From an uncultured Gammaproteobacteria bacterium (GTDB taxonomy: Bacteria > Patescibacteriota > Patescibacteriia > UBA11705), in contig CAYPSS010000003.1 in the NCBI GenBank assembly GCA_964413735.1, forward strand, positions 106,626-170,625: a stretch of DNA of 64,000 bases, written 5' to 3'. This document shows, one piece after another, positions 3,725 to 47,624 of the stretch. The notes beneath the pieces are model-generated. The model saw only the letters and a list, made by a program, of their open reading frames with translations. It did no database searches and was not told where the DNA came from. The position numbers and the translations under genes are program-made. Numbering within the stretch: position 1 is the first letter of the stretch; the number at the start of each line of letters is the position of its first letter.

Positions 3725-6115
3725 TCAAGATTTAATTTTGTTTTTTGATCTTTTATTAAGTTCAATGATTAAATTTTCCACTTCTCGATCGATTATTTGC
3801 CGAACTGTTCGGGCGCCTTGGCCAATTTTTTGCGATTCTTGTGCCAAGCGGGATAAGTTTTTACTGAGTTTGGTTATGTTTATCAAAGATTTTTTTTCTT
3901 CCAGTTGTTTTAAGTGTTTTTTGAATATTTTTTGTAGTGTAATTGCCTCTAAGTTTTCAAATACAATAATTTTATCAAGGCGATTGATAAATTCGGGGCG
4001 AAAATGTTTTTTTGCTTCCTCAACAATTTTTTCGATTAAGGCTGAATTTGTTTGTTGGTTACCAAAGCCCCAAGAAATATTTTTGTTGAATAAATCGGCG
4101 CCTAAATTGGCGGTCATAATAATAATCGTGTTTCTGAAATTAATTTTTTTGCCGGTGGCATCGGTTAAATAGCCGTCTTCTAAAATTTGCAATAATAAGT
4201 TTAAAACTTCCGGATGTGCTTTGTCGATTTCATCAAATAAAATTAAACTGTAAGGACGTTTTTTAATGGCGTCGGTCAGTTTGTTTTCTTCGCGATATCC
4301 CACATAACCGGCCGGTGCCCCAATCAGCTTTGAAGCGTTGAATTTTTCACTGAATTCCGCCATGTCAATTCGGATGAATGATTCTTGATCGCGAAATAAT
4401 TTTTCCGCTAAAATTTTTGCGGTATAAGTTTTGCCCACTCCGCTTGGTCCTAAAAATAGAAACGAGGCTTGCGGTCGATTTTCATCTTGCAGTCCGAGTT
4501 TTGATTTTTTTAATGAATTGATAATTGTGGTTAGGGCTTTATCTTGACCGAAAATTTCATTTTGTAATTTAATTTTAATTTTATCCAAGGTTTGCCAATC
4601 GTTTCCCAGTAATTCACTGATCGGAATTTGGGTTTTGGCTGAAATGATTTCCTGTATGGTTTGGGCGTCGACGATTGGTGGATTTTTTGTTAATTGAAGA
4701 TCGCGAGTTTTTTGTAATTTTGTTAACCGTTTTTTAAGAATGATTTGCTCGGCTTTTATTTTAATGGCTAGGTTGAAGTTTTCATTTAGAACAGCTTTTT
4801 CTTTCTCTGTATTCAGCTTGTTGATTTCCAATTCCAAATTATTGATATTAGTAAATAACTTATTATTATTCATCTGTATTTTTTGTTTGGCGGCGGCTTC
4901 GTCAAGCAGGTCGATGGCCTTGTCCGGAAACAATTTATCTTGTATATAGCGTTTACTTAAATTTAAGGCCGTAATAATGGCCGCGTCGTCAAATTTTACC
5001 TGGTGGTAATTTTCATAATTGCTCTTTACCCCAAATAAAATTTCTTTTGTTTCGGTGATTGTTGGTTCGGTTAAAATTATGGGTTGGAACCGTCGTTCCA
5101 GCGCCGCATCTTTTTCAATGAATTTTTTATATTCTTCCATGGTGGTGGCGCCAATACAACGCAGTTGACCACGCGCTAAGAGTGGTTTGAGCAAATTTGC
5201 CGCGTCCAAACTGCCATTACTGGAACCGGCACCGACAATATTATGTAATTCATCAATGAATAAAATTGTCTGCGGGTCATTTTTGATTTCATCAATAATT
5301 TCTTTGAGACGATTTTCAAAATCACCGCGATACATGGTTCCAGCTACCAAAGAGCCGAGGTCCAGAGAAATGATTTTTTTATTTTTCAAAATATTCGGGA
5401 CTTCGCCGTTTACGATTTTCTTGGCTAATCCTTCCACTAATGCGGTTTTCCCTACTCCCGGATCACCTAAAATCAAGGGATTATTTTTGTCTTTACGACA
5501 TAAAATTTGAATTAAACGATCAAGCTCCTGGTCGCGTTTAATAATCGGGTTGATTGATTTTTGATATTCAATATCCGTTAAATCAACGGAAAAATATTTT
5601 AATGTCCCTGAACCGGGTTTGTTCGTAAAAGGGTCTTGACCCTGTAAAATTAAATTTTCCGGGTTATTGATTTGGGTTAAATGCGTATCGCCTTTTAATA
5701 AATTATCTAAGTCATTTTTTAATTTTTCAAGATTGATTTTATAATTTTGTAAAATATATTTTATCAAATATGGCGGGTCGTCGAGTAATACGGCCAAACA
5801 ATGTTCCGTACCGACAAAAGTGTGTTTTTGACTAAACGCCAAATTAAAAGCACTGATCAGCAAGTCTTCGATGGTTTTGATTCGTGATTTCGATTCTATT
5901 GATGGTAGATTAAGAGAAAGCAAATCAGCTAATTTTTTTTCATCATTATTTTTGTCTTGAAGAAAAAATTTATTGGCCAAAGTGTTCGGTTCATGAAATA
6001 AGGCAATAATAAAATCATTCAATTCGATGACGGAACGATTTTTTTTAAGGGCGAACTTTTTCGCTTGTTCCAAACAGTGGCGCAAATTGTCGGATAGTTT
6101 TTCTAAAAAATCCAT
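3725..6115 (-). CDS. clpC: Clp-family double AAA+ ATPase/chaperone (ClpC/ClpB type) with Clp N-domain
   Basis: Two Walker A motifs (GDPGVGKT and GPSGVGKT). Clp_N-like N-terminus. Short coiled-coil middle domain between the AAA modules, closer in length to ClpC than ClpB. 796 aa. Confidence 0.85.
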   Translation of the reverse strand: MDFLEKLSDNLRHCLEQAKKFALKKNRSVIELNDFIIALFHEPNTLANKFFLQDKNNDEKKLADLLSLNLPSIESKSRIKTIEDLLISAFNLAFSQKHTFVGTEHCLAVLLDDPPYLIKYILQNYKINLEKLKNDLDNLLKGDTHLTQINNPENLILQGQDPFTNKPGSGTLKYFSVDLTDIEYQKSINPIIKRDQELDRLIQILCRKDKNNPLILGDPGVGKTALVEGLAKKIVNGEVPNILKNKKIISLDLGSLVAGTMYRGDFENRLKEIIDEIKNDPQTILFIDELHNIVGAGSSNGSLDAANLLKPLLARGQLRCIGATTMEEYKKFIEKDAALERRFQPIILTEPTITETKEILFGVKSNYENYHQVKFDDAAIITALNLSKRYIQDKLFPDKAIDLLDEAAAKQKIQMNNNKLFTNINNLELEINKLNTEKEKAVLNENFNLAIKIKAEQIILKKRLTKLQKTRDLQLTKNPPIVDAQTIQEIISAKTQIPISELLGNDWQTLDKIKIKLQNEIFGQDKALTTIINSLKKSKLGLQDENRPQASFLFLGPSGVGKTYTAKILAEKLFRDQESFIRIDMAEFSEKFNASKLIGAPAGYVGYREENKLTDAIKKRPYSLILFDEIDKAHPEVLNLLLQILEDGYLTDATGKKINFRNTIIIMTANLGADLFNKNISWGFGNQQTNSALIEKIVEEAKKHFRPEFINRLDKIIVFENLEAITLQKIFKKHLKQLEEKKSLINITKLSKNLSRLAQESQKIGQGARTVRQIIDREVENLIIELNKRSKNKIKS

Positions 6116-6120
6116 AAATA

Positions 6121-6999
6121 TTAGGCGGTCATTTGGCGTAATTTGTTAATTCGTTCATTAAGCGGAGGATGAGTGTCAAATAAGTTGGTTAAAGACTTTT
6201 TCCCGGCAAACGGACTGGCGATAAATAAATGTGCGGTAGCGGTATTGGCTCTTTGCATGGGGGCATGATACTGGGAAATTTTTTCCAGTGCATCGGCCAA
6301 AGCTTGCGGATAACGCGTGAGAAGTGCGCCATCAGCATCAGCCAAGTATTCGCGTTTACGAGAAATAGCCAGTTGGATGATTTTGGCGATAAGCGGTGAT
6401 AAAATCATGAGTACCAAACCAACAATCAAAATAATTCCATTGCCATTTTTGTTGTCGCTTTTTCGTCCAAAAAAAGTACTTCGAACAAAAATGTCACTTA
6501 ATAACGCCACAATTCCCACCAACACAATCACCACCATCATTAATCTGATATCATAGTTTTTAATGTGTGATAATTCATGAGCAATGACTCCTTCCAGTTC
6601 GGTGCGATTAAGCTTTTCCAATAAACCGGTAGTTAGCGCAATGGAAGCATGTTGTGGATCACGACCGGTGGCAAAAGCATTGGGAGCCGAGTCATTGATC
6701 AAATATATTTTTGGCATGGGTAATCCGGCGGTAATACAAAGATTTTCCACTAAGCGATAAATTTCCACATTTTCATCTCTTTTAATTTCCTTTGCTCCGG
6801 TGGTGGAAAGTGCCACTTTGTCACCTTGATAATAACTTACTAAGGCCATAATCAATGAGATAATGGTGGCAATGATTAGCGCCGAATATCCAAGTTCACT
6901 GTAAAGACTGAAAAAATATCCCAGCAATATGATAAAAGCACAAAATATAGTGATGAGGATAACGGTTCTTTTTTTGTTGGAATCAATTTGATTGTACAT
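6121..6999 (-). CDS. htpX: Zinc metalloprotease HtpX (peptidase M48)
   Basis: N-terminal TM helices, HELSHI (HExxH) motif, typical HtpX length. Adjacent to lemA, as is common. Confidence 0.85.
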   Translation of the reverse strand: MYNQIDSNKKRTVILITIFCAFIILLGYFFSLYSELGYSALIIATIISLIMALVSYYQGDKVALSTTGAKEIKRDENVEIYRLVENLCITAGLPMPKIYLINDSAPNAFATGRDPQHASIALTTGLLEKLNRTELEGVIAHELSHIKNYDIRLMMVVIVLVGIVALLSDIFVRSTFFGRKSDNKNGNGIILIVGLVLMILSPLIAKIIQLAISRKREYLADADGALLTRYPQALADALEKISQYHAPMQRANTATAHLFIASPFAGKKSLTNLFDTHPPLNERINKLRQMTA

Positions 7000-7053
7000 A
7001 ATAATATTTTTAGGACTGCAAATCCGGAAAGGATTTGCAGAGAAAAAATACTA

Positions 7054-7611
7054 TTAGAATTGAACATTAATATTTTGTTTTTCGTCTTGAGAAGCTTCGA
7101 AAAATTCATATTTCTTAAAGCCCAAGAAATTGGCGACCAAGTTGTTGGGGAAAATTTGAATTTTGGTATTAAAGTCACGAACATTGCCATTATAAAAACG
7201 ACGAGAAGCTTGGATTTTATTTTCCGTATCGGAAAGTTCGCCTTGTAATTGCAAGAAGTTTTGGTTAGCTTTGAGTTCCGGATAATTTTCCGCCAAAGCG
7301 AAAATTGATTTCAAGGTATTGCTCAAAGCGTTTTCCGCTTCGCCTTTGGCTTCAACTCCTTGAGTTTGCATGGCTTTGGTGCGTGCCTCGGTCACTTTTT
7401 CAAATGTTTCTTTTTCGTGTGAAGCATATCCTTTGACCGTGTTGACTAAATTGGGGATCAAGTCATAGCGTCGTTTGAGCTGAACATCAATATCGCTCCA
7501 TGCTTCATCGGTTCGATTTTTGAATTTGATCAAGCCGTTGTAAACGCCGATTAACCACAAAACGACGATTACCAATACGGCTAGAACAATGTAAAAAACA
7601 GTTGTTCCCAT
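7054..7611 (-). CDS. lemA: LemA family membrane protein
   Basis: N-terminal TM anchor followed by the conserved LemA core (YNGLIKFKNRTDEAWSDIDVQLKRRYDLIPNLV). Confidence 0.85.
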   Translation of the reverse strand: MGTTVFYIVLAVLVIVVLWLIGVYNGLIKFKNRTDEAWSDIDVQLKRRYDLIPNLVNTVKGYASHEKETFEKVTEARTKAMQTQGVEAKGEAENALSNTLKSIFALAENYPELKANQNFLQLQGELSDTENKIQASRRFYNGNVRDFNTKIQIFPNNLVANFLGFKKYEFFEASQDEKQNINVQF

Positions 7612-9031: not shown

Positions 9032-10408
9032 ATGATAGAAATTAATGATAATATTTTCAAAGCTTATGATATTCGCGGGGTGTATGGTCGTGATTTTGAT
9101 GAACAATTAGCTTACCGATTGGGCCGGGCGTTTGCTGAACTGCTTAAAAGCGAAACCGGTCGAGAAACCGTTAATTTGGGTGTGTCGCAGGATATGCGCT
9201 TATCTTCCCCGATACTTTATGAAAATTTAATCAAGGGAATTTTAGAGCAAGGGGTTAATGTTATGGAGTTTGGTTTGGTTGCTACGCCGACCTTTTATTT
9301 CGGAGTGGCCAAAAATCGTTTGGATGGTGGTATTCAGGTTTCCGCTTCTCATAATCCGCCGGAATATAATGGTTTTAAATTAGTCAGAGATAGTGCCATG
9401 GCGGTAAGCAGTGAGACGGGTATTATGACTTTGAAACAAGCGGTAAAACAAAATGAATTTCCCTCTGTTTCAGTTAAGGGTCACCTGATAGGTAAAGTGG
9501 AAAATTTATTGGATGAACAAGTGGTGTTTGCCATAAGACAAGGTGATGTTACCAAGATAAAGCCTTTTAAAATTGTTGTTGATAGCGCCAATGCGGTTGG
9601 TGGTCCGATGATTAAGGCTTTATTTGATCGTTTGCCGGTAAAAGTGGAATATTTGAATTTTGAACTTGATGGTTCTTTCCCGGCGCATGAGGCTGATCCT
9701 TTGAAAGACAAAAACAACCAACAATTACAAAATAAAGTATTGGAAAGTGGCGCGGATTTGGGAGTGGCGCTTGACGGAGATGGCGATCGAATATTTTTTA
9801 TTGATAACCAAGGAAAAACAGTTGAACCGGCGATTGTGCGAGGAATTCTGGCAAAAATATTTTTACAGGAAAATCCGGGGGCCACAATTTGTTATGATAT
9901 TCGTCCGGGAAAAATTACCGAGGATATGATTGTGGAAAATGGTGGTAAGCCGGTAGTCACGCGAGTGGGACATTCGTTAATCAAAGAAAAGGCGCGTAAA
10001 GTGAATGCGATTTTTGCCGGTGAAAGTAGTGGTCATTATTTTGTTAAATTACCATTTGGTTTTTTCGAAGAACCATTGATCGTGGTATCGAAATTTTTGA
10101 TTGAATTAAGTATTGCCGAATTATCTTTGTCAGAGTATATTAAACCATTGCAACGTTATTTTCATTCCGGTGAAATTAATTTTGGGGTTAATGATAAACA
10201 AGCGGTGTTCAATGCTATAAAAGAAAAATACGGTGACCATTTGCAATATGATTTTGATGGTTTGAGTTTTGTTTGGGAGGATTGGTGGTTTAATGTTCGT
10301 GCTTCCAACACGGAAAATGTGGTACGATTAAATTTGGAAAGTGTGGCACAGTCTTTAACTCAAGAAAAGGTGGCTGAAATTACGGAATTGATCAAACAAT
10401 TTGATTAG
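9032..10408 (+). CDS. glmM: Alpha-D-phosphohexomutase (phosphoglucosamine mutase / phosphomannomutase family)
   Basis: Active-site Ser loop SASHNPPEYNGFK, Mg-binding DGDGDR, sugar-binding GESSGH. 458 aa. Confidence 0.8.
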   Translation: MIEINDNIFKAYDIRGVYGRDFDEQLAYRLGRAFAELLKSETGRETVNLGVSQDMRLSSPILYENLIKGILEQGVNVMEFGLVATPTFYFGVAKNRLDGGIQVSASHNPPEYNGFKLVRDSAMAVSSETGIMTLKQAVKQNEFPSVSVKGHLIGKVENLLDEQVVFAIRQGDVTKIKPFKIVVDSANAVGGPMIKALFDRLPVKVEYLNFELDGSFPAHEADPLKDKNNQQLQNKVLESGADLGVALDGDGDRIFFIDNQGKTVEPAIVRGILAKIFLQENPGATICYDIRPGKITEDMIVENGGKPVVTRVGHSLIKEKARKVNAIFAGESSGHYFVKLPFGFFEEPLIVVSKFLIELSIAELSLSEYIKPLQRYFHSGEINFGVNDKQAVFNAIKEKYGDHLQYDFDGLSFVWEDWWFNVRASNTENVVRLNLESVAQSLTQEKVAEITELIKQFD

Positions 10409-10418
10409 CAATTTTGGC

Positions 10419-10447
10419 TTGACTTTTTTTGGTTTTAGTGGTACAAT
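10419..10447 (+). promoter_or_regulatory. Sigma70-like promoter (TTGACT-17-TGgTACAAT) for micro-ORF
   Basis: ttgact at 10419-10424, 17-nt spacer, extended -10 tggtacaat. GGAGGTG SD then ATG at 10475. Confidence 0.45.
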
Positions 10448-10474
10448 GTTGATGCACTTTGGAGGTGTTTTCCC

Positions 10475-10573
10475 ATGGATTGGCTCTTGCGACGCGAAAA
10501 TTGGAAATGGGGTGCTTTGATTCTGGTGGTCATTCATTTGCTGGTGTTTCTGGGAGTCGGTTTCTCGGTTTAA
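10475..10573 (+). CDS. 32-aa single-TM micro-protein (MDWLLRRENWKWGALILVVIHLLVFLGVGFSV)
   Basis: Own promoter, SD GGAGGTG 7 nt upstream, hydrophobic helix, immediately followed by a terminator. Below the 60-aa ORF-track threshold. Confidence 0.4.
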   Translation: MDWLLRRENWKWGALILVVIHLLVFLGVGFSV

Positions 10574-10583
10574 TTGTTTTGAT

Positions 10584-10607
10584 AAATCTCGTAAAACGAG
10601 ATTTTTT
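10584..10607 (+). terminator. Rho-independent terminator
   Basis: aaatctcg-taaaa-cgagattt stem-loop followed by tttttt. Confidence 0.6.
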
Positions 10608-10639
10608 CGTTAAATTAGATAAATTATATTGAGATAAAC

Positions 10640-10667
10640 TTGACAAATTTAGTGGATTTGCTATAAT
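10640..10667 (+). promoter_or_regulatory. Sigma70-like promoter (TTGACA-16-TGcTATAAT) for GC-rich ORF
   Basis: Consensus -35 and extended -10. Only about 8 nt of leader before ATG 10682, with no SD. Confidence 0.45.
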
Positions 10668-10681
10668 GCGTTTGCTGCAAA

Positions 10682-10990
10682 ATGGCAGTCGTTCTTCTCT
10701 TTCAGGAGGTTTCTGTGGAAGGCGTGGCCAGTGTTCCGGTTGTTCAGGGTGAGGTTCCGGCGCCGACCGAGGCTCCTCTGCCGCAGTTGTCGGTGGATCA
10801 GGAGATTCAGATTCGGAATGTCCTACGCGACATCCTCGAGCGCTGCGAGCGCCCGAGCGACGTCAAGCGTGCGGTCATCCGGCGGCTCGGCGGGAAGTAC
10901 ACTTTCCCGGCGCCGACGGTGATCTGCCGTAAGTCACAGCGACTGGTGGCGATCAAGATCGGCGACCAGGAGATCAGCGTCGAATTGTAA
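10682..10990 (+). CDS. GC-rich 102-aa hypothetical protein with foreign-like codon usage (possible DEK-C-like helical domain)
   Basis: Very GC-rich compared with flanks. Strong GC3 periodicity (GAC ATC CTC GAG CGC TGC GAG CGC CCG AGC GAC GTC AAG). The other two frames give Arg-rich junk. Motif EIQIRNVLRDILE...SDVKRAVIRRLGGKY. Flanked by promoter and terminator. Confidence 0.5.
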   Translation: MAVVLLFQEVSVEGVASVPVVQGEVPAPTEAPLPQLSVDQEIQIRNVLRDILERCERPSDVKRAVIRRLGGKYTFPAPTVICRKSQRLVAIKIGDQEISVEL

Positions 10991-10997
10991 TCTTGAT

Positions 10998-11022
10998 AGC
11001 AGATCAAATGATCTGCTTTTTT
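10998..11022 (+). terminator. Rho-independent terminator
   Basis: agcagatca-aa-tgatctgct perfect stem followed by tttttt. Confidence 0.65.
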
Positions 11023-11057
11023 GTTTGATTGATGTTTTTCACGTTTTATTTTTTAAT

Positions 11058-11370
11058 ACTTGTCCCACTTGTTTTGCTTATTACTTTCTTGCTTACAGCT
11101 TTCTTTATTCTACAGCTCAGACTCTGAAACAAGTTCAGAGTGAGAATATGGTTTTTATTTTTATTCCCTCATTTCCTAATTCTTAATCCCTTTTAATACT
11201 CGTTTCACTCGTATTACTTGTCCCACTTGTTTTGCTTATTACTTTCTTGCTTGCCGCTTTCTTGATTCAACAGCTCAGACTCTGAAACAAGTTCAGAGTG
11301 AGAAGATAACTTGTTTTACTTGTCTTGCTTATCACTTTCTTGCTTACTACTTACTTGTTGTCTGCTTCGA
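11058..11370 (+). repeat. Direct repeat array: two approximately 88-bp copies (11058-11145, 11216-11303; about 84/88 identical) plus a degenerate third copy, each containing a hairpin
   Basis: The copies begin acttgtcccacttgttttgcttattactttcttgctt and end cagctcagactctgaaacaagttcagagtgaga. Inner inverted repeat actctgaa/ttcagagt with loop acaag. Period about 158 bp. No ORF. Confidence 0.7.
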
Positions 11371-11483
11371 CTTGCTTCGCCCGCATAGCGAGGCGAGCGC
11401 TGCTCAGCATGACAACATGATTGACGAATTGTTTTTTTTATGATAATTATTGGTTGGGAATTCTTCAAAAAAGGAGAGCGAAA

Positions 11484-11966
11484 ATGCGAGAAAATTTGAC
11501 TTTGATTATTGTAATTGTCGCAATTATTACCGCTTTCTTAACGCTGGCAGTACAGATTTTTTACGCGTGGTTACAACGAAAAGGTTTTTTACAAAAAGTT
11601 CGTTCGTTTGTTTATCAATCAAGTAATTCTTTTGCAGTTACATTGCCGGATATTTCTTGGTTGCAAATAACTTTGCGTTGGTATTTTGATGCGAAGTTTG
11701 TTTTAACGGAAACGGAAAGGGGACATTATAATAATTTGTTTTATCGGGCGATTGAAAAAGTTATTGTGCAAAATGAATGTTCAACAGATTTTTATCAATC
11801 AGAAGAATTTGTACTTTTATTGGTTAAGGCTTTGCAGGAATTGATAATTGATTCAACGAAAAAAAAATCTGTCTTTCAATTGGAAGTTACTTTGGAAAAA
11901 AACTGTCCAAGAATCCAGAGTGTAAGTTTGCGTCGAGTACTGTCCCCGGAAGATTTTGTGAATTGA
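11484..11966 (+). CDS. Hypothetical membrane-anchored protein
   Basis: SD aaggagag 6 nt before ATG 11484. N-terminal TM (LTLIIVIVAIITAFLTLAVQIFYAWL). No family recognised. Confidence 0.5.
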   Translation: MRENLTLIIVIVAIITAFLTLAVQIFYAWLQRKGFLQKVRSFVYQSSNSFAVTLPDISWLQITLRWYFDAKFVLTETERGHYNNLFYRAIEKVIVQNECSTDFYQSEEFVLLLVKALQELIIDSTKKKSVFQLEVTLEKNCPRIQSVSLRRVLSPEDFVN

Positions 11967-12035
11967 ATTTTGAGGAAGTTAATAACTTCCTTTTTTTATT
12001 TTATCTTGAATGATGATATGTTATAATATACCAAT

Positions 12036-12836
12036 ATGATTGGAGTTTTTGATTCGGGATTGGGCGGTTTAACAATTCTCAAAGAATTAAGAAAAACTTT
12101 GCCTCAATACGATTATTTATATTTAGGTGATACTTTGCATTTGCCTTATGGCAATCGTAGTCAGGAAGCGATTTATCAGTTGACGGTCAAGGCCTGTGAT
12201 TTTTTGTTTGCGCAAGGGGTGAAGTTAATTATTATTGCTTGTAACACGGCCAGTGCCAAAGCCTTGCCACGCTTGCAACAAGAATATTTATTGCAACGAA
12301 AAAGCAAAACAGAAAACATCTTGGGCGTGGTTCGACCGGTCGCCGAATATTTTGCTCAGCATTATCAAAGGATTGGGGTAATTGGAACGCGCGGGACAAT
12401 AGATTCTTTGGTTTATGAAAAGGAAATCAAACAATTGAATAAAAAAGCAAAAATTTATCAAGTGGCTACTCCTCTTTTGGTGCCGTTAATTGAAGAGGGT
12501 TGGGGGAATAGTCCGGAAATGGAAGGTGTTTTACGAAAGTATTTAAAAGTGTTAAAATCTAAAAAATTGGAAGGTTTAATTTTGGGTTGCACCCATTATC
12601 CTTTGGTTATTAGGCAAATCCAAAAACAACTCGGACAAAATTGTGTGATTCCGCATCCGGGTAAAATCGTGTCTTGGAAATTACAGGAATATTTAAAGCG
12701 TCATCTTGAATTGGAAAAAACCATTTCACGACAAGGGAAATGTCAGTATTGTGTGACTGATCTAACGGATAATTTTCGTGAAATTGCACAAAAATTTTTG
12801 AAAAATAAAATAATAATTAATCAAGTGGAATATTAA
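12036..12836 (+). CDS. murI: Glutamate racemase
   Basis: DSGLGG N-terminus, catalytic-Cys motifs ACNTAS and GCTHYP. Confidence 0.85.
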   Translation: MIGVFDSGLGGLTILKELRKTLPQYDYLYLGDTLHLPYGNRSQEAIYQLTVKACDFLFAQGVKLIIIACNTASAKALPRLQQEYLLQRKSKTENILGVVRPVAEYFAQHYQRIGVIGTRGTIDSLVYEKEIKQLNKKAKIYQVATPLLVPLIEEGWGNSPEMEGVLRKYLKVLKSKKLEGLILGCTHYPLVIRQIQKQLGQNCVIPHPGKIVSWKLQEYLKRHLELEKTISRQGKCQYCVTDLTDNFREIAQKFLKNKIIINQVEY

Positions 12837-47186: not shown

Positions 47187-47215
47187 TTGACAAAATATTG
47201 TTAATATGTTATAAT
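47187..47215 (+). promoter_or_regulatory. Consensus sigma70 promoter (TTGACA-17-TATAAT) driving the GC-rich RNA element
   Basis: ttgaca at 47187-47192, 17-nt spacer, tataat at 47210-47215. Confidence 0.5.
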
Positions 47216-47221
47216 GTTCGC

Positions 47222-47597
47222 GCAGTATCCACATGGAAGTGGAATGTGTGTGTTTTCCTCGAACGTCGCTGGAGGGAGGCCGTGATCAGAGGTCCGCCGT
47301 AACCAAGCAATTGGTTACAGCCCAAAAGCAGTCTGGGCTTGATAATGCGACTGTTAGTTTTCGAGGCGCGGGGTCAGTTGGCCGAATTGGCGCCGGATTT
47401 AACTCGAGAACGACTGTTTATAACAATTTGGCAAGGAGGAAGGGTGACAACGTTGCTGGAACCGTGCTAAAAAGAAGGGTTAGCGACGGACCTGAGCCAA
47501 GTCGTCGTCGTAAATCAGGCCGCATTCGGGGGAGGAACGGTGAGAACGTGGCTGATGACGTATTAATTTGAACCAATGTCTGAGACATTGGTTTTTT
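47222..47597 (+). ncRNA. Candidate structured ncRNA (about 375 nt, GC-rich; class unresolved, RNase P RNA is one possibility)
   Basis: GC-rich block in an AT-rich genome between a consensus promoter and the terminator aaccaatgtctgagacattgg+tttttt. The embedded 112-aa ORF has no GC3 bias, rare AGG/AGA/CGA codons and a low-complexity basic product. Perfect 8-bp stem with GNRA loop (guaaccaa-GCAA-uugguuac). Nested helices ucgag[ggcgc..gcgcc]cucga. Hairpin agccca..ugggcu. Long-range complements cgucgcu/agcgacg and aggucccg-like agguccg/cggaccu. Confidence 0.5.
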
Positions 47598-47624
47598 CGT
47601 TTTAAAATTATTATTTTCAATAAC

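Follow-up and report, generated by a model that had tools for sequence, protein, structure and literature searches.

In the definition given by Cumby et al. (2012, PMC3594210), a moron is an autonomous accessory gene of a prophage, which carries its own promoter and terminator and has a deviating guanine-plus-cytosine (GC) content. The subject of this work is a GC-rich mini-gene read from GTG 10715 in a stretch of 64,000 nucleotides (nt) of contig CAYPSS010000003.1 (hereafter the window, to which positions refer unless another locus is named). Like a moron, the mini-gene is a single small gene between a promoter and a terminator of its own, its GC content is unlike that of its neighbors (0.63 vs 0.37), and it is absent from the same interval of a distant relative (L041). 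It differs in lying outside any prophage, at a fixed chromosomal locus that is inherited across species and whose other genes encode ClpB, an M48 peptidase, LemA, a DUF8173 protein, PMM, MurI, RseP and GAPDH; searches for signs of a phage at the locus gave no significant PHROG match, no match to a phage record and no viral contig. Its architecture is thus closest to that of a phage moron, but the prophage that defines a moron is missing. As to the gene cassettes of integrons, no integrase is encoded within ~4 kb on either side of the mini-gene, attC sites not having been formally searched for, and the mini-gene has its own promoter, unlike typical cassettes.

The comparison of this locus between assemblies shows that the mini-gene is an old resident of a genus-level clade of Patescibacteria, is under purifying selection and is GC-elevated in every carrier. 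We consider it likely that it is an autonomous transcription unit for a lineage-restricted small protein, old and exchanging its alleles, rather than an assembly chimera, an RNA gene or a recent import. The first-pass annotation of the window had described the mini-gene as a unit of its own, complete with promoter and terminator and set off by a shift in GC content, and this description stands; the three explanations that it put forward (import, chimera and misread RNA) do not.

Composition, coding potential and age of the mini-gene

Sliding windows of 100 nt gave a GC content of 0.62–0.68 over ~10700–10990 versus 0.28–0.40 on either side, so that the contrast between a GC-rich open reading frame (ORF) and AT-rich flanks noted at first reading is a real shift. 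The island is the strongest compositional outlier of the 64 kb, which have an overall GC content of ~37%: the most GC-rich segment of 276 nt starts at 10703 and reaches 0.634, ~5.7 standard deviations above the mean (0.368, standard deviation 0.047). Counted from GTG 10715, the coding sequence has a GC content of 0.627, with 0.70, 0.41 and 0.77 at the three codon positions (GC1, GC2 and GC3; GC3 0.772), whereas the 57 comparison ORFs of at least 100 amino acids (aa) in the window average 0.378, with a GC3 of 0.34 (standard deviation 0.08). High GC stops at the stop codon and sets in near the Shine-Dalgarno (SD) sequence, ~10–15 nt 5' of GTG 10715. AT-rich sequence of native appearance makes up the promoter, the greater part of the leader and the terminator. 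The 102-aa ORF originally described (10682..10990) does exist, and the alternative frames are Arg/Ser-rich as stated, which was seen for the +2 frame and the antisense strand. Translational codon bias was considered as the cause of the high GC and dropped: no other gene in the window exceeds a GC3 of ~0.43, two doubtful minus-strand ORFs excepted, and the mini-gene carries G or C at four-fold sites, beyond the two-fold pyrimidine sites (read by eye, without a tally).

Six loci were compared: the window, the Logan assemblies of SRR29243433 (L043) and SRR19732722 (L003), both reached via the exact neighboring PMM protein, and three short contigs of a second species (L001, L002 and L042); they represent four divergent alleles. 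PMM places the genome in Patescibacteria, its nearest named relatives being Falkowbacteria (63% identity). The locus is syntenic in the second species and has the same architecture there, and in L003 the promoter, hairpin and terminator are the same but the GC-rich allele that they enclose is a different one. Between the window and L001, the number of synonymous substitutions per site (dS) is 1.43 for the mini-gene and 1.20 for PMM, as expected of a resident gene. The corresponding values are 1.17 and 0.007 for L003, and 0.074 and 0.003 for L043, which differs from the window by 7 nt within the mini-gene. All alleles are GC-elevated: those of the window, L043 and L003 have a GC3 of 0.72–0.79, and those of the second species a GC content of 0.49–0.51 and a GC3 of 0.58–0.65, with flanks at 0.35–0.42 GC. 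Some blocks of the AT-rich flanking signals are identical between the two species. An exhaustive profile search of 1.84e9 protein representatives retrieved the family itself only and no donor, and neither scans of viral contigs nor tblastn searches of phages and plasmids returned a homolog of the mini-gene.

The homology search that had been proposed for the 102-aa product was productive, yielding two database homologs of 87 and 88 aa (P0001 and P0002; 53–54% identity), both of which begin with MEGVAS. The ratio of nonsynonymous to synonymous substitution rates (dN/dS) is 0.13–0.34 in all 15 pairs of the six alleles, and indels between alleles measure 3, 9 or 12 nt, all multiples of three. In the three most divergent pairs, the ratio of the proportions of nonsynonymous and synonymous differences (pN/pS) in frame 0 is 0.43–0.47 (Fisher p 6e-7, 2e-6 and 2e-7), and it is 0.39 for the L001/L002 pair (p 7e-3); the other two frames of the same alignments give ratios of 1.0–1.9 and contain stop codons.

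Automatic gene calls at this locus are wrong: a 76-aa product of the +2 frame is annotated at positions 4635–4865 of L003, and one of 135 aa on the antisense strand at positions 4630–5037 of L043. For the window allele, no gene with the mini-gene product is on record in the collection searched. Together, these observations imply that the family is largely hidden from protein databases, from which it is almost absent because annotation misses it. The gene callers that made these errors were tuned to the AT-rich genome, and similar compositional-outlier genes are probably under-counted in the genomes of candidate phyla. Hidden alleles were sought via the mis-framed products and via a membrane ORF of 32–54 aa that lies upstream, with singletons as the only result; scans of genome and metagenome contigs with back-translated peptides returned no relatives, the patterns used being such that L003-like alleles would be missed.

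The signals that frame the coding sequence are listed in Table 1. The promoter matches the sequence given in the first-pass annotation and scores 12/12; perfect matches number two in the 64-kb window, against a chance expectation of 0.06, and both hexamers are kept in the five other loci. Because the -10 box ends at 10667, transcription is inferred to start near 10674, 7 nt further on. The 5'-terminal stem-loop is helix 1 of the consensus fold and is fully paired (100%) in six of the six sequences, with one G-U to G-C change. Helix 2, a pairing of the pyrimidine tract with the SD sequence, is weak and predicted only. The GGAGG of the SD is invariant in all six loci, and the homologs all open with MEGVA(S/T), which corresponds to GTG 10715, whereas ATG 10682 is not conserved, being replaced by ATC in the three contigs of the second species. 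The previous view that translation would be leaderless, with an 8-nt leader and no SD, applies to that ATG only and is wrong for the gene, since the SD and the GTG start are conserved. The terminator was correctly located, although its stem has 8 bp and a 4-nt loop rather than a perfect 9 bp; the 30-nt block that contains it (TAGCAGATCAAATGATCTGCTTTTTTGTTT) is identical in six of six loci and in both species. A scan with the invariant 23-nt sequence of the terminator returned 36 loci, none of which encodes a relative of the mini-gene, as this is a common terminator sequence found, for example, in Acinetobacter. Read as a mechanism, the perfect extended -10 promoter would start a transcript at ~10674, the first 16 nt of which would fold into a stem-loop protecting the 5' end; AGGAGG, 5 nt before GTG 10715, would drive the translation of 91 residues; and the 8-bp hairpin followed by a U tract would terminate an mRNA of ~345 nt. 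Expression of the mini-gene is probably strong.

Table 1. Elements of the mini-gene and the repeats that follow it (window positions)
Feature	Coordinates	Strand	Description
Consensus sigma-70 promoter	10640..10667	+	-35 TTGACA 10640-10645, 16-nt spacer, extended -10 TG 10659-10660, -10 TATAAT 10662-10667
5'-terminal stem-loop GCUGC-AAAAUG-GCAGU	10674..10689	+	5-pair stem; ATG 10682 in loop
Rest of ~41-nt leader	10690..10714	+	pyrimidine tract 10690-10703, then SD AGGAGG 10704-10709, 5 nt before start codon
Coding sequence	10715..10990	+	GTG start, 91 codons plus TAA; homologs P0001 and P0002 start here
Intrinsic terminator	10998..11023	+	stem-loop 10998-11017 with 8-bp stem AGCAGATC/GATCTGCT and loop AAAT, then TTTTTT
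Downstream intergenic repeats	11054..11357	+	two 96-nt direct repeats, 11054-11149 and 11212-11307, plus partial third copy

Exchange of alleles between lineages

The L003 strain and the window are 99.5% identical across a flank of 4.6 kb, with a dS of 0 for the DUF8173 gene. Of the differences specific to L003, 94 fall in the 276-nt ORF and a further 12 in the leader segment of 47 nt; the 4,636 nt upstream contain 15, and the 39-nt terminator segment has a single one. The L003 allele is as distant from that of the window as the alleles of the other species are. This distance, combined with a promoter, hairpin and terminator that are nearly unchanged, implies that the allele was replaced by homologous recombination via the conserved flanks. 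As many as 13 of the 15 upstream differences fall in one tract of 140 nt (6385–6522) inside the Peptidase_M48 gene (6121–6999, minus strand), which marks another short stretch of recombination between these strains. At a finer scale, five of the seven differences between the window and L043 match the L003 state, three of these five lying within 12 nt, and in the downstream repeat L003 and L043 group together against the window. Such a mosaic suggests that short tracts were also converted. The sequence comparisons show that whole alleles and short patches have been exchanged between lineages by homologous recombination through near-invariant flanks. Allele replacement between strains that are 99.5% identical means that these uncultured symbionts recombine across species-level divergence at specific loci.

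The same pattern, deeply diverged alleles between near-identical flanks in near-identical genomes, is that of the comC and agrD pherotypes and of other strain-specificity cassettes. By analogy, it would imply recombinational replacement and, possibly, balancing or frequency-dependent selection. The mini-gene differs from such loci in that its product has neither a signal peptide nor a processing motif and that no gene for a receptor, a kinase or immunity lies next to it; its dN/dS of 0.2–0.3 shows no sign of positive selection, and its compositional anomaly has no counterpart there.

Competing explanations of the GC-rich segment

If a GC-rich fragment of another organism had been joined into an AT-rich contig during assembly, one would expect abrupt steps in composition, such as those at ~10700 and ~10990, and a segment mishandled by gene callers. 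Such a chimera is nevertheless next to impossible, because the same junctions are present in three independent assemblies (the source of the window, SRR29243433 and SRR19732722), this promoter and terminator enclosing a GC-rich allele in L043 and L003 too, and the same architecture recurs in three further assemblies of another species; moreover, the steps coincide with the SD/start region and with the stop codon, not with arbitrary points, and contig breaks occur in the downstream repeats rather than at the island. The suggestion that a non-coding RNA, structured and GC-rich, was mistaken for an ORF, or that the segment is a dual-function RNA in which the structure rather than the ORF is selected, has more in its favor. 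In AT-rich genomes, a GC island that follows a strong promoter is, classically, a stable RNA; the genes of such RNAs resemble the mini-gene in the GC island, the very strong promoter, the intrinsic terminator and the Arg/Ser-rich alternative frames; the other perfect promoter of the window also precedes a GC-rich, non-coding-looking unit, at ~47.2 kb. The minimum free energy of the segment is -146 kcal/mol (z -2.4), RNAalifold proposes 75 pairs, with compensatory changes in 14, the observed values beating 500 of 500 shuffles, and shuffling of synonymous codons gives a negative z for every allele tested (-1.2, -4.2, -1.5 and -1.9 for four alleles, with -0.49 +/- 1.08 for twelve control segments of other genes). 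On the other side, the covariation term contributes just -2.05 of -58 kcal/mol; the column-shuffled alignment yields a z of -1.9 for the coding part, the -3.9 of the full-length transcript being due to the terminator and the invariant 5' hairpin; and the structure test is circular, the structure being derived from the same four-lineage alignment. Rfam gave no match at E<=1 over 9800–12200, apart from an unrelated chance match to frnS (9997–10098), and no family at the gathering score in the whole window, in which ARAGORN detected neither tRNA nor tmRNA. The mini-gene further differs from structured RNA genes in its frame-specific purifying selection and its conserved SD and start codon, features which, like the in-frame indels, RNA constraint alone cannot yield. 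We therefore hold an RNA gene to be improbable; the folding data are suggestive of some selection on mRNA structure, without being decisive.

Variability and composition might also be the work of targeted hypermutation, by a diversity-generating retroelement (DGR) or another locus-specific mutator, as the variable part is the transcribed segment alone, flanked by an invariant hairpin on either side, and its divergence is ~170 times the dS of the flank in the comparison with L003 and ~25 times in that with L043. The DGR idea was abandoned for want of a template, the window containing no second copy of the segment on either strand: blastn (word size 7) and tblastn found no template repeat in it, a reverse transcriptase being sought among the immediate neighbors only. 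Nor is the variation restricted to adenines as in a DGR, given that all four bases differ and that in-frame indels of 3, 9 and 12 nt occur. Synonymous sites are saturated while dN/dS is 0.27, which indicates an old allele rather than fresh mutagenesis; the L003 allele is as distant as those of another species; and the patches shared by L043 and L003 indicate recombination. All this makes a mutator very improbable. Recent horizontal acquisition from a high-GC donor, with a composition that is not yet ameliorated and still reflects its source, is somewhat less remote but unlikely too. In its support, GC3 (0.77) and GC1 (0.70) lie 5 standard deviations from those of other genes, amino acid usage is shifted toward R over K, the net recent changes run from GC to AT as for a foreign gene decaying in place, and the PMM–MurI interval is variable, the distant relative L041 having a different GC-rich unit there. 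Against it, a second species has orthologs at this locus, all of them GC-elevated, whose divergence is like that of PMM; high GC is bounded by the stop codon and by a point ~10–15 nt 5' of the start, between AT-rich signals conserved across species; and no homolog outside the family turned up among protein representatives, phages, plasmids or viral contigs. A rough estimate of neutral decay under the F81 model (equilibrium GC3 0.3, PMM pS 0.60, saturation ~0.71) would, in addition, cap GC3 at ~0.58 since the species split, even from a starting value of 1.0. Three alleles stand at 0.72–0.79, which would call for a sustaining force or a GC-rich allele pool.

The GC level has two candidate causes under the preferred reading, that of an old resident gene: selection that favors a GC-rich mRNA with a stable fold, and GC-biased gene conversion at a locus prone to recombination. 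The mini-gene resembles the known cases of GC-biased gene conversion in bacteria in combining proneness to recombination and an elevated GC3 with a genomic background in which mutation favors AT; it differs in that its polarized changes run from GC to AT. The genome-wide effects of such conversion reportedly amount to a few GC3 points, not +40. The locus offers a test case for the maintenance of GC content, which has stayed far from that of the genome over an interval of more than one substitution per synonymous site, and it could reveal what, besides recent transfer, keeps bacterial GC high.

Several points weigh against this reading of the locus. With six sequences and four divergent alleles, evolutionary estimates are noisy, and dS is near saturation. 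Polarized changes are mostly from GC to AT (4:1 in the window lineage, 9:0 in L001/L002), so that decay is happening, and these changes are as compatible with an anciently GC-rich gene that is slowly decaying as with a GC-maintaining force. The mRNA-structure signal is marginal, the L003 allele alone falling outside the control range. The start of transcription, the role of the hairpin and the high expression are all deduced from sequence. Finally, the protein has chance-level matches only in Pfam, NCBIfam, PHROGs and PADLOC, and a sequence profile search of the PDB gave no match.

Predicted product and other features of the window

The product belongs to an unrecorded family. In all alleles, a variable N-terminal tail of ~25 residues is acidic (isoelectric point, pI, ~4) and a conserved C-terminal domain of ~62 residues is basic (pI ~10). 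The AlphaFold (AF2) model, based on three sequences, has a predicted local distance difference test (pLDDT) score of 71.7; its N-terminus is disordered, as residues 5–17 are below 50 and there is no secondary structure before residue 27. The model comprises helices 27–43 and 47–58 and strands 68–72, 77–82 and 85–90, the C-terminal domain being predicted to consist of two helices packed on a three-stranded sheet. Foldseek matches to dynein light chains of the LC8/Tctex type and to IraD/gp25-like folds are not significant (E 0.035–0.2, with a model of moderate pLDDT), and for the LC8/Tctex family there was neither a Pfam match nor a relevant match in the PDB sequence-profile search; the likeness to these two-layer alpha/beta folds is one of shape and no evidence of membership. 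A DEK-C-like motif, perceived at first reading, found no support, Pfam giving no match at E<=0.1, DEK_C included. A profile or fold match coupled with an adjacent co-transcribed antitoxin, as for a type II toxin–antitoxin module of the RelE/ParE kind, was not found either. The protein may be abundant in the cytoplasm and serve there as a binding module, with nucleic acid or another protein as its partner.

The downstream repeats, located between the terminator and the gene that follows, occur nowhere else in the window. Each full copy holds a hairpin, CAGACTCTGAAACAAGTTCAGAGTG (11118–11142 and 11276–11300). Repeat length varies between strains, and short-read assemblies break there; the MurI contig begins inside the repeats. 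A link between the repeats and the mini-gene is unproven. A 32-nt hairpin block (CAGACTCTGAAACAAGTTCAGAGTGAGAATAT) and a CTTG-rich block of ~50 nt are near-identical in L042, that is, in the other species, and near-identity despite saturated synonymous sites implies that these blocks are constrained or were recently exchanged. The 160-aa downstream neighbor is not on record. Downstream of the mini-gene, the contigs of the second species carry nested palindromes (GTCATTGCGAGGAGTTCCGCGAAGCGGAACGACGTGGCAATC ... CTCGCAATGAC; L001 1075–1120, L002 634–770 and L042 676–730), and a related short palindromic element lies in inverted orientation at 11362–11390 of the window; these elements look like miniature inverted-repeat transposable element (MITE)-like repeats.

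Just upstream of the mini-gene, a separate tiny transcription unit (10419–10604) has a TTGACT-17-TACAAT promoter, a GGAGG and its own terminator. Its ORF (10475–10573, MDWLLRRENWKWGALILVVIHLLVFLGVGFSV) encodes a hydrophobic peptide of 32 aa; the counterpart in L002 and L042 is a 54-aa ORF, which is absent from L001. In L041, whose PMM is 65% identical, the PMM–MurI interval contains a different GC-rich (0.61) unit (6590–7100, minus strand) with its own promoter and SD, apparently frameshifted and not homologous to the mini-gene, and also a GH1 glycosidase gene. The PMM–MurI interval looks like a variable islet.

The other perfect promoter of the window (TTGACA-17-TGTTATAAT, 47187–47215) opens a unit at 47187–47600 (plus strand) that is the second most GC-rich segment (0.54) and ends in a terminator, AACCAATGTCTGAGACATTGGTTTTTT; its fold has a z of -1.6, and it has no Rfam match at E<=1. 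Its 112-aa ORF is probably not coding, because GC content is flat across codon positions; the unit also contains two mini-ORFs of 8 codons, each with an SD and a GTG start. This unit may be an undescribed non-coding RNA or a leader-peptide unit. As a bolder idea, which we regard as doubtful though less so than any of the rival explanations, the mini-gene would be a dedicated swap cassette with near-invariant non-coding handles (promoter and 5' hairpin at one end, terminator at the other), its coding segment held ~40 GC3 points above the mutational equilibrium by a local force, be it strong GC-biased conversion or selection for an mRNA that is GC-rich, heavily folded and nuclease-resistant, encoding a strain-specificity protein (toward phage, host or kin), and the 47.2-kb unit would be of the same class. 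If so, swap handles would let alleles of species-level divergence recombine into otherwise identical Patescibacteria genomes, and the 47.2-kb unit would be another hyper-expressed GC-rich unit of a class that gene callers systematically misread. Elsewhere in the window, the gene strand switches from minus to plus at ~7.6–7.8 kb and GC skew is positive from ~2 kb on, which hints at a replication origin nearby.

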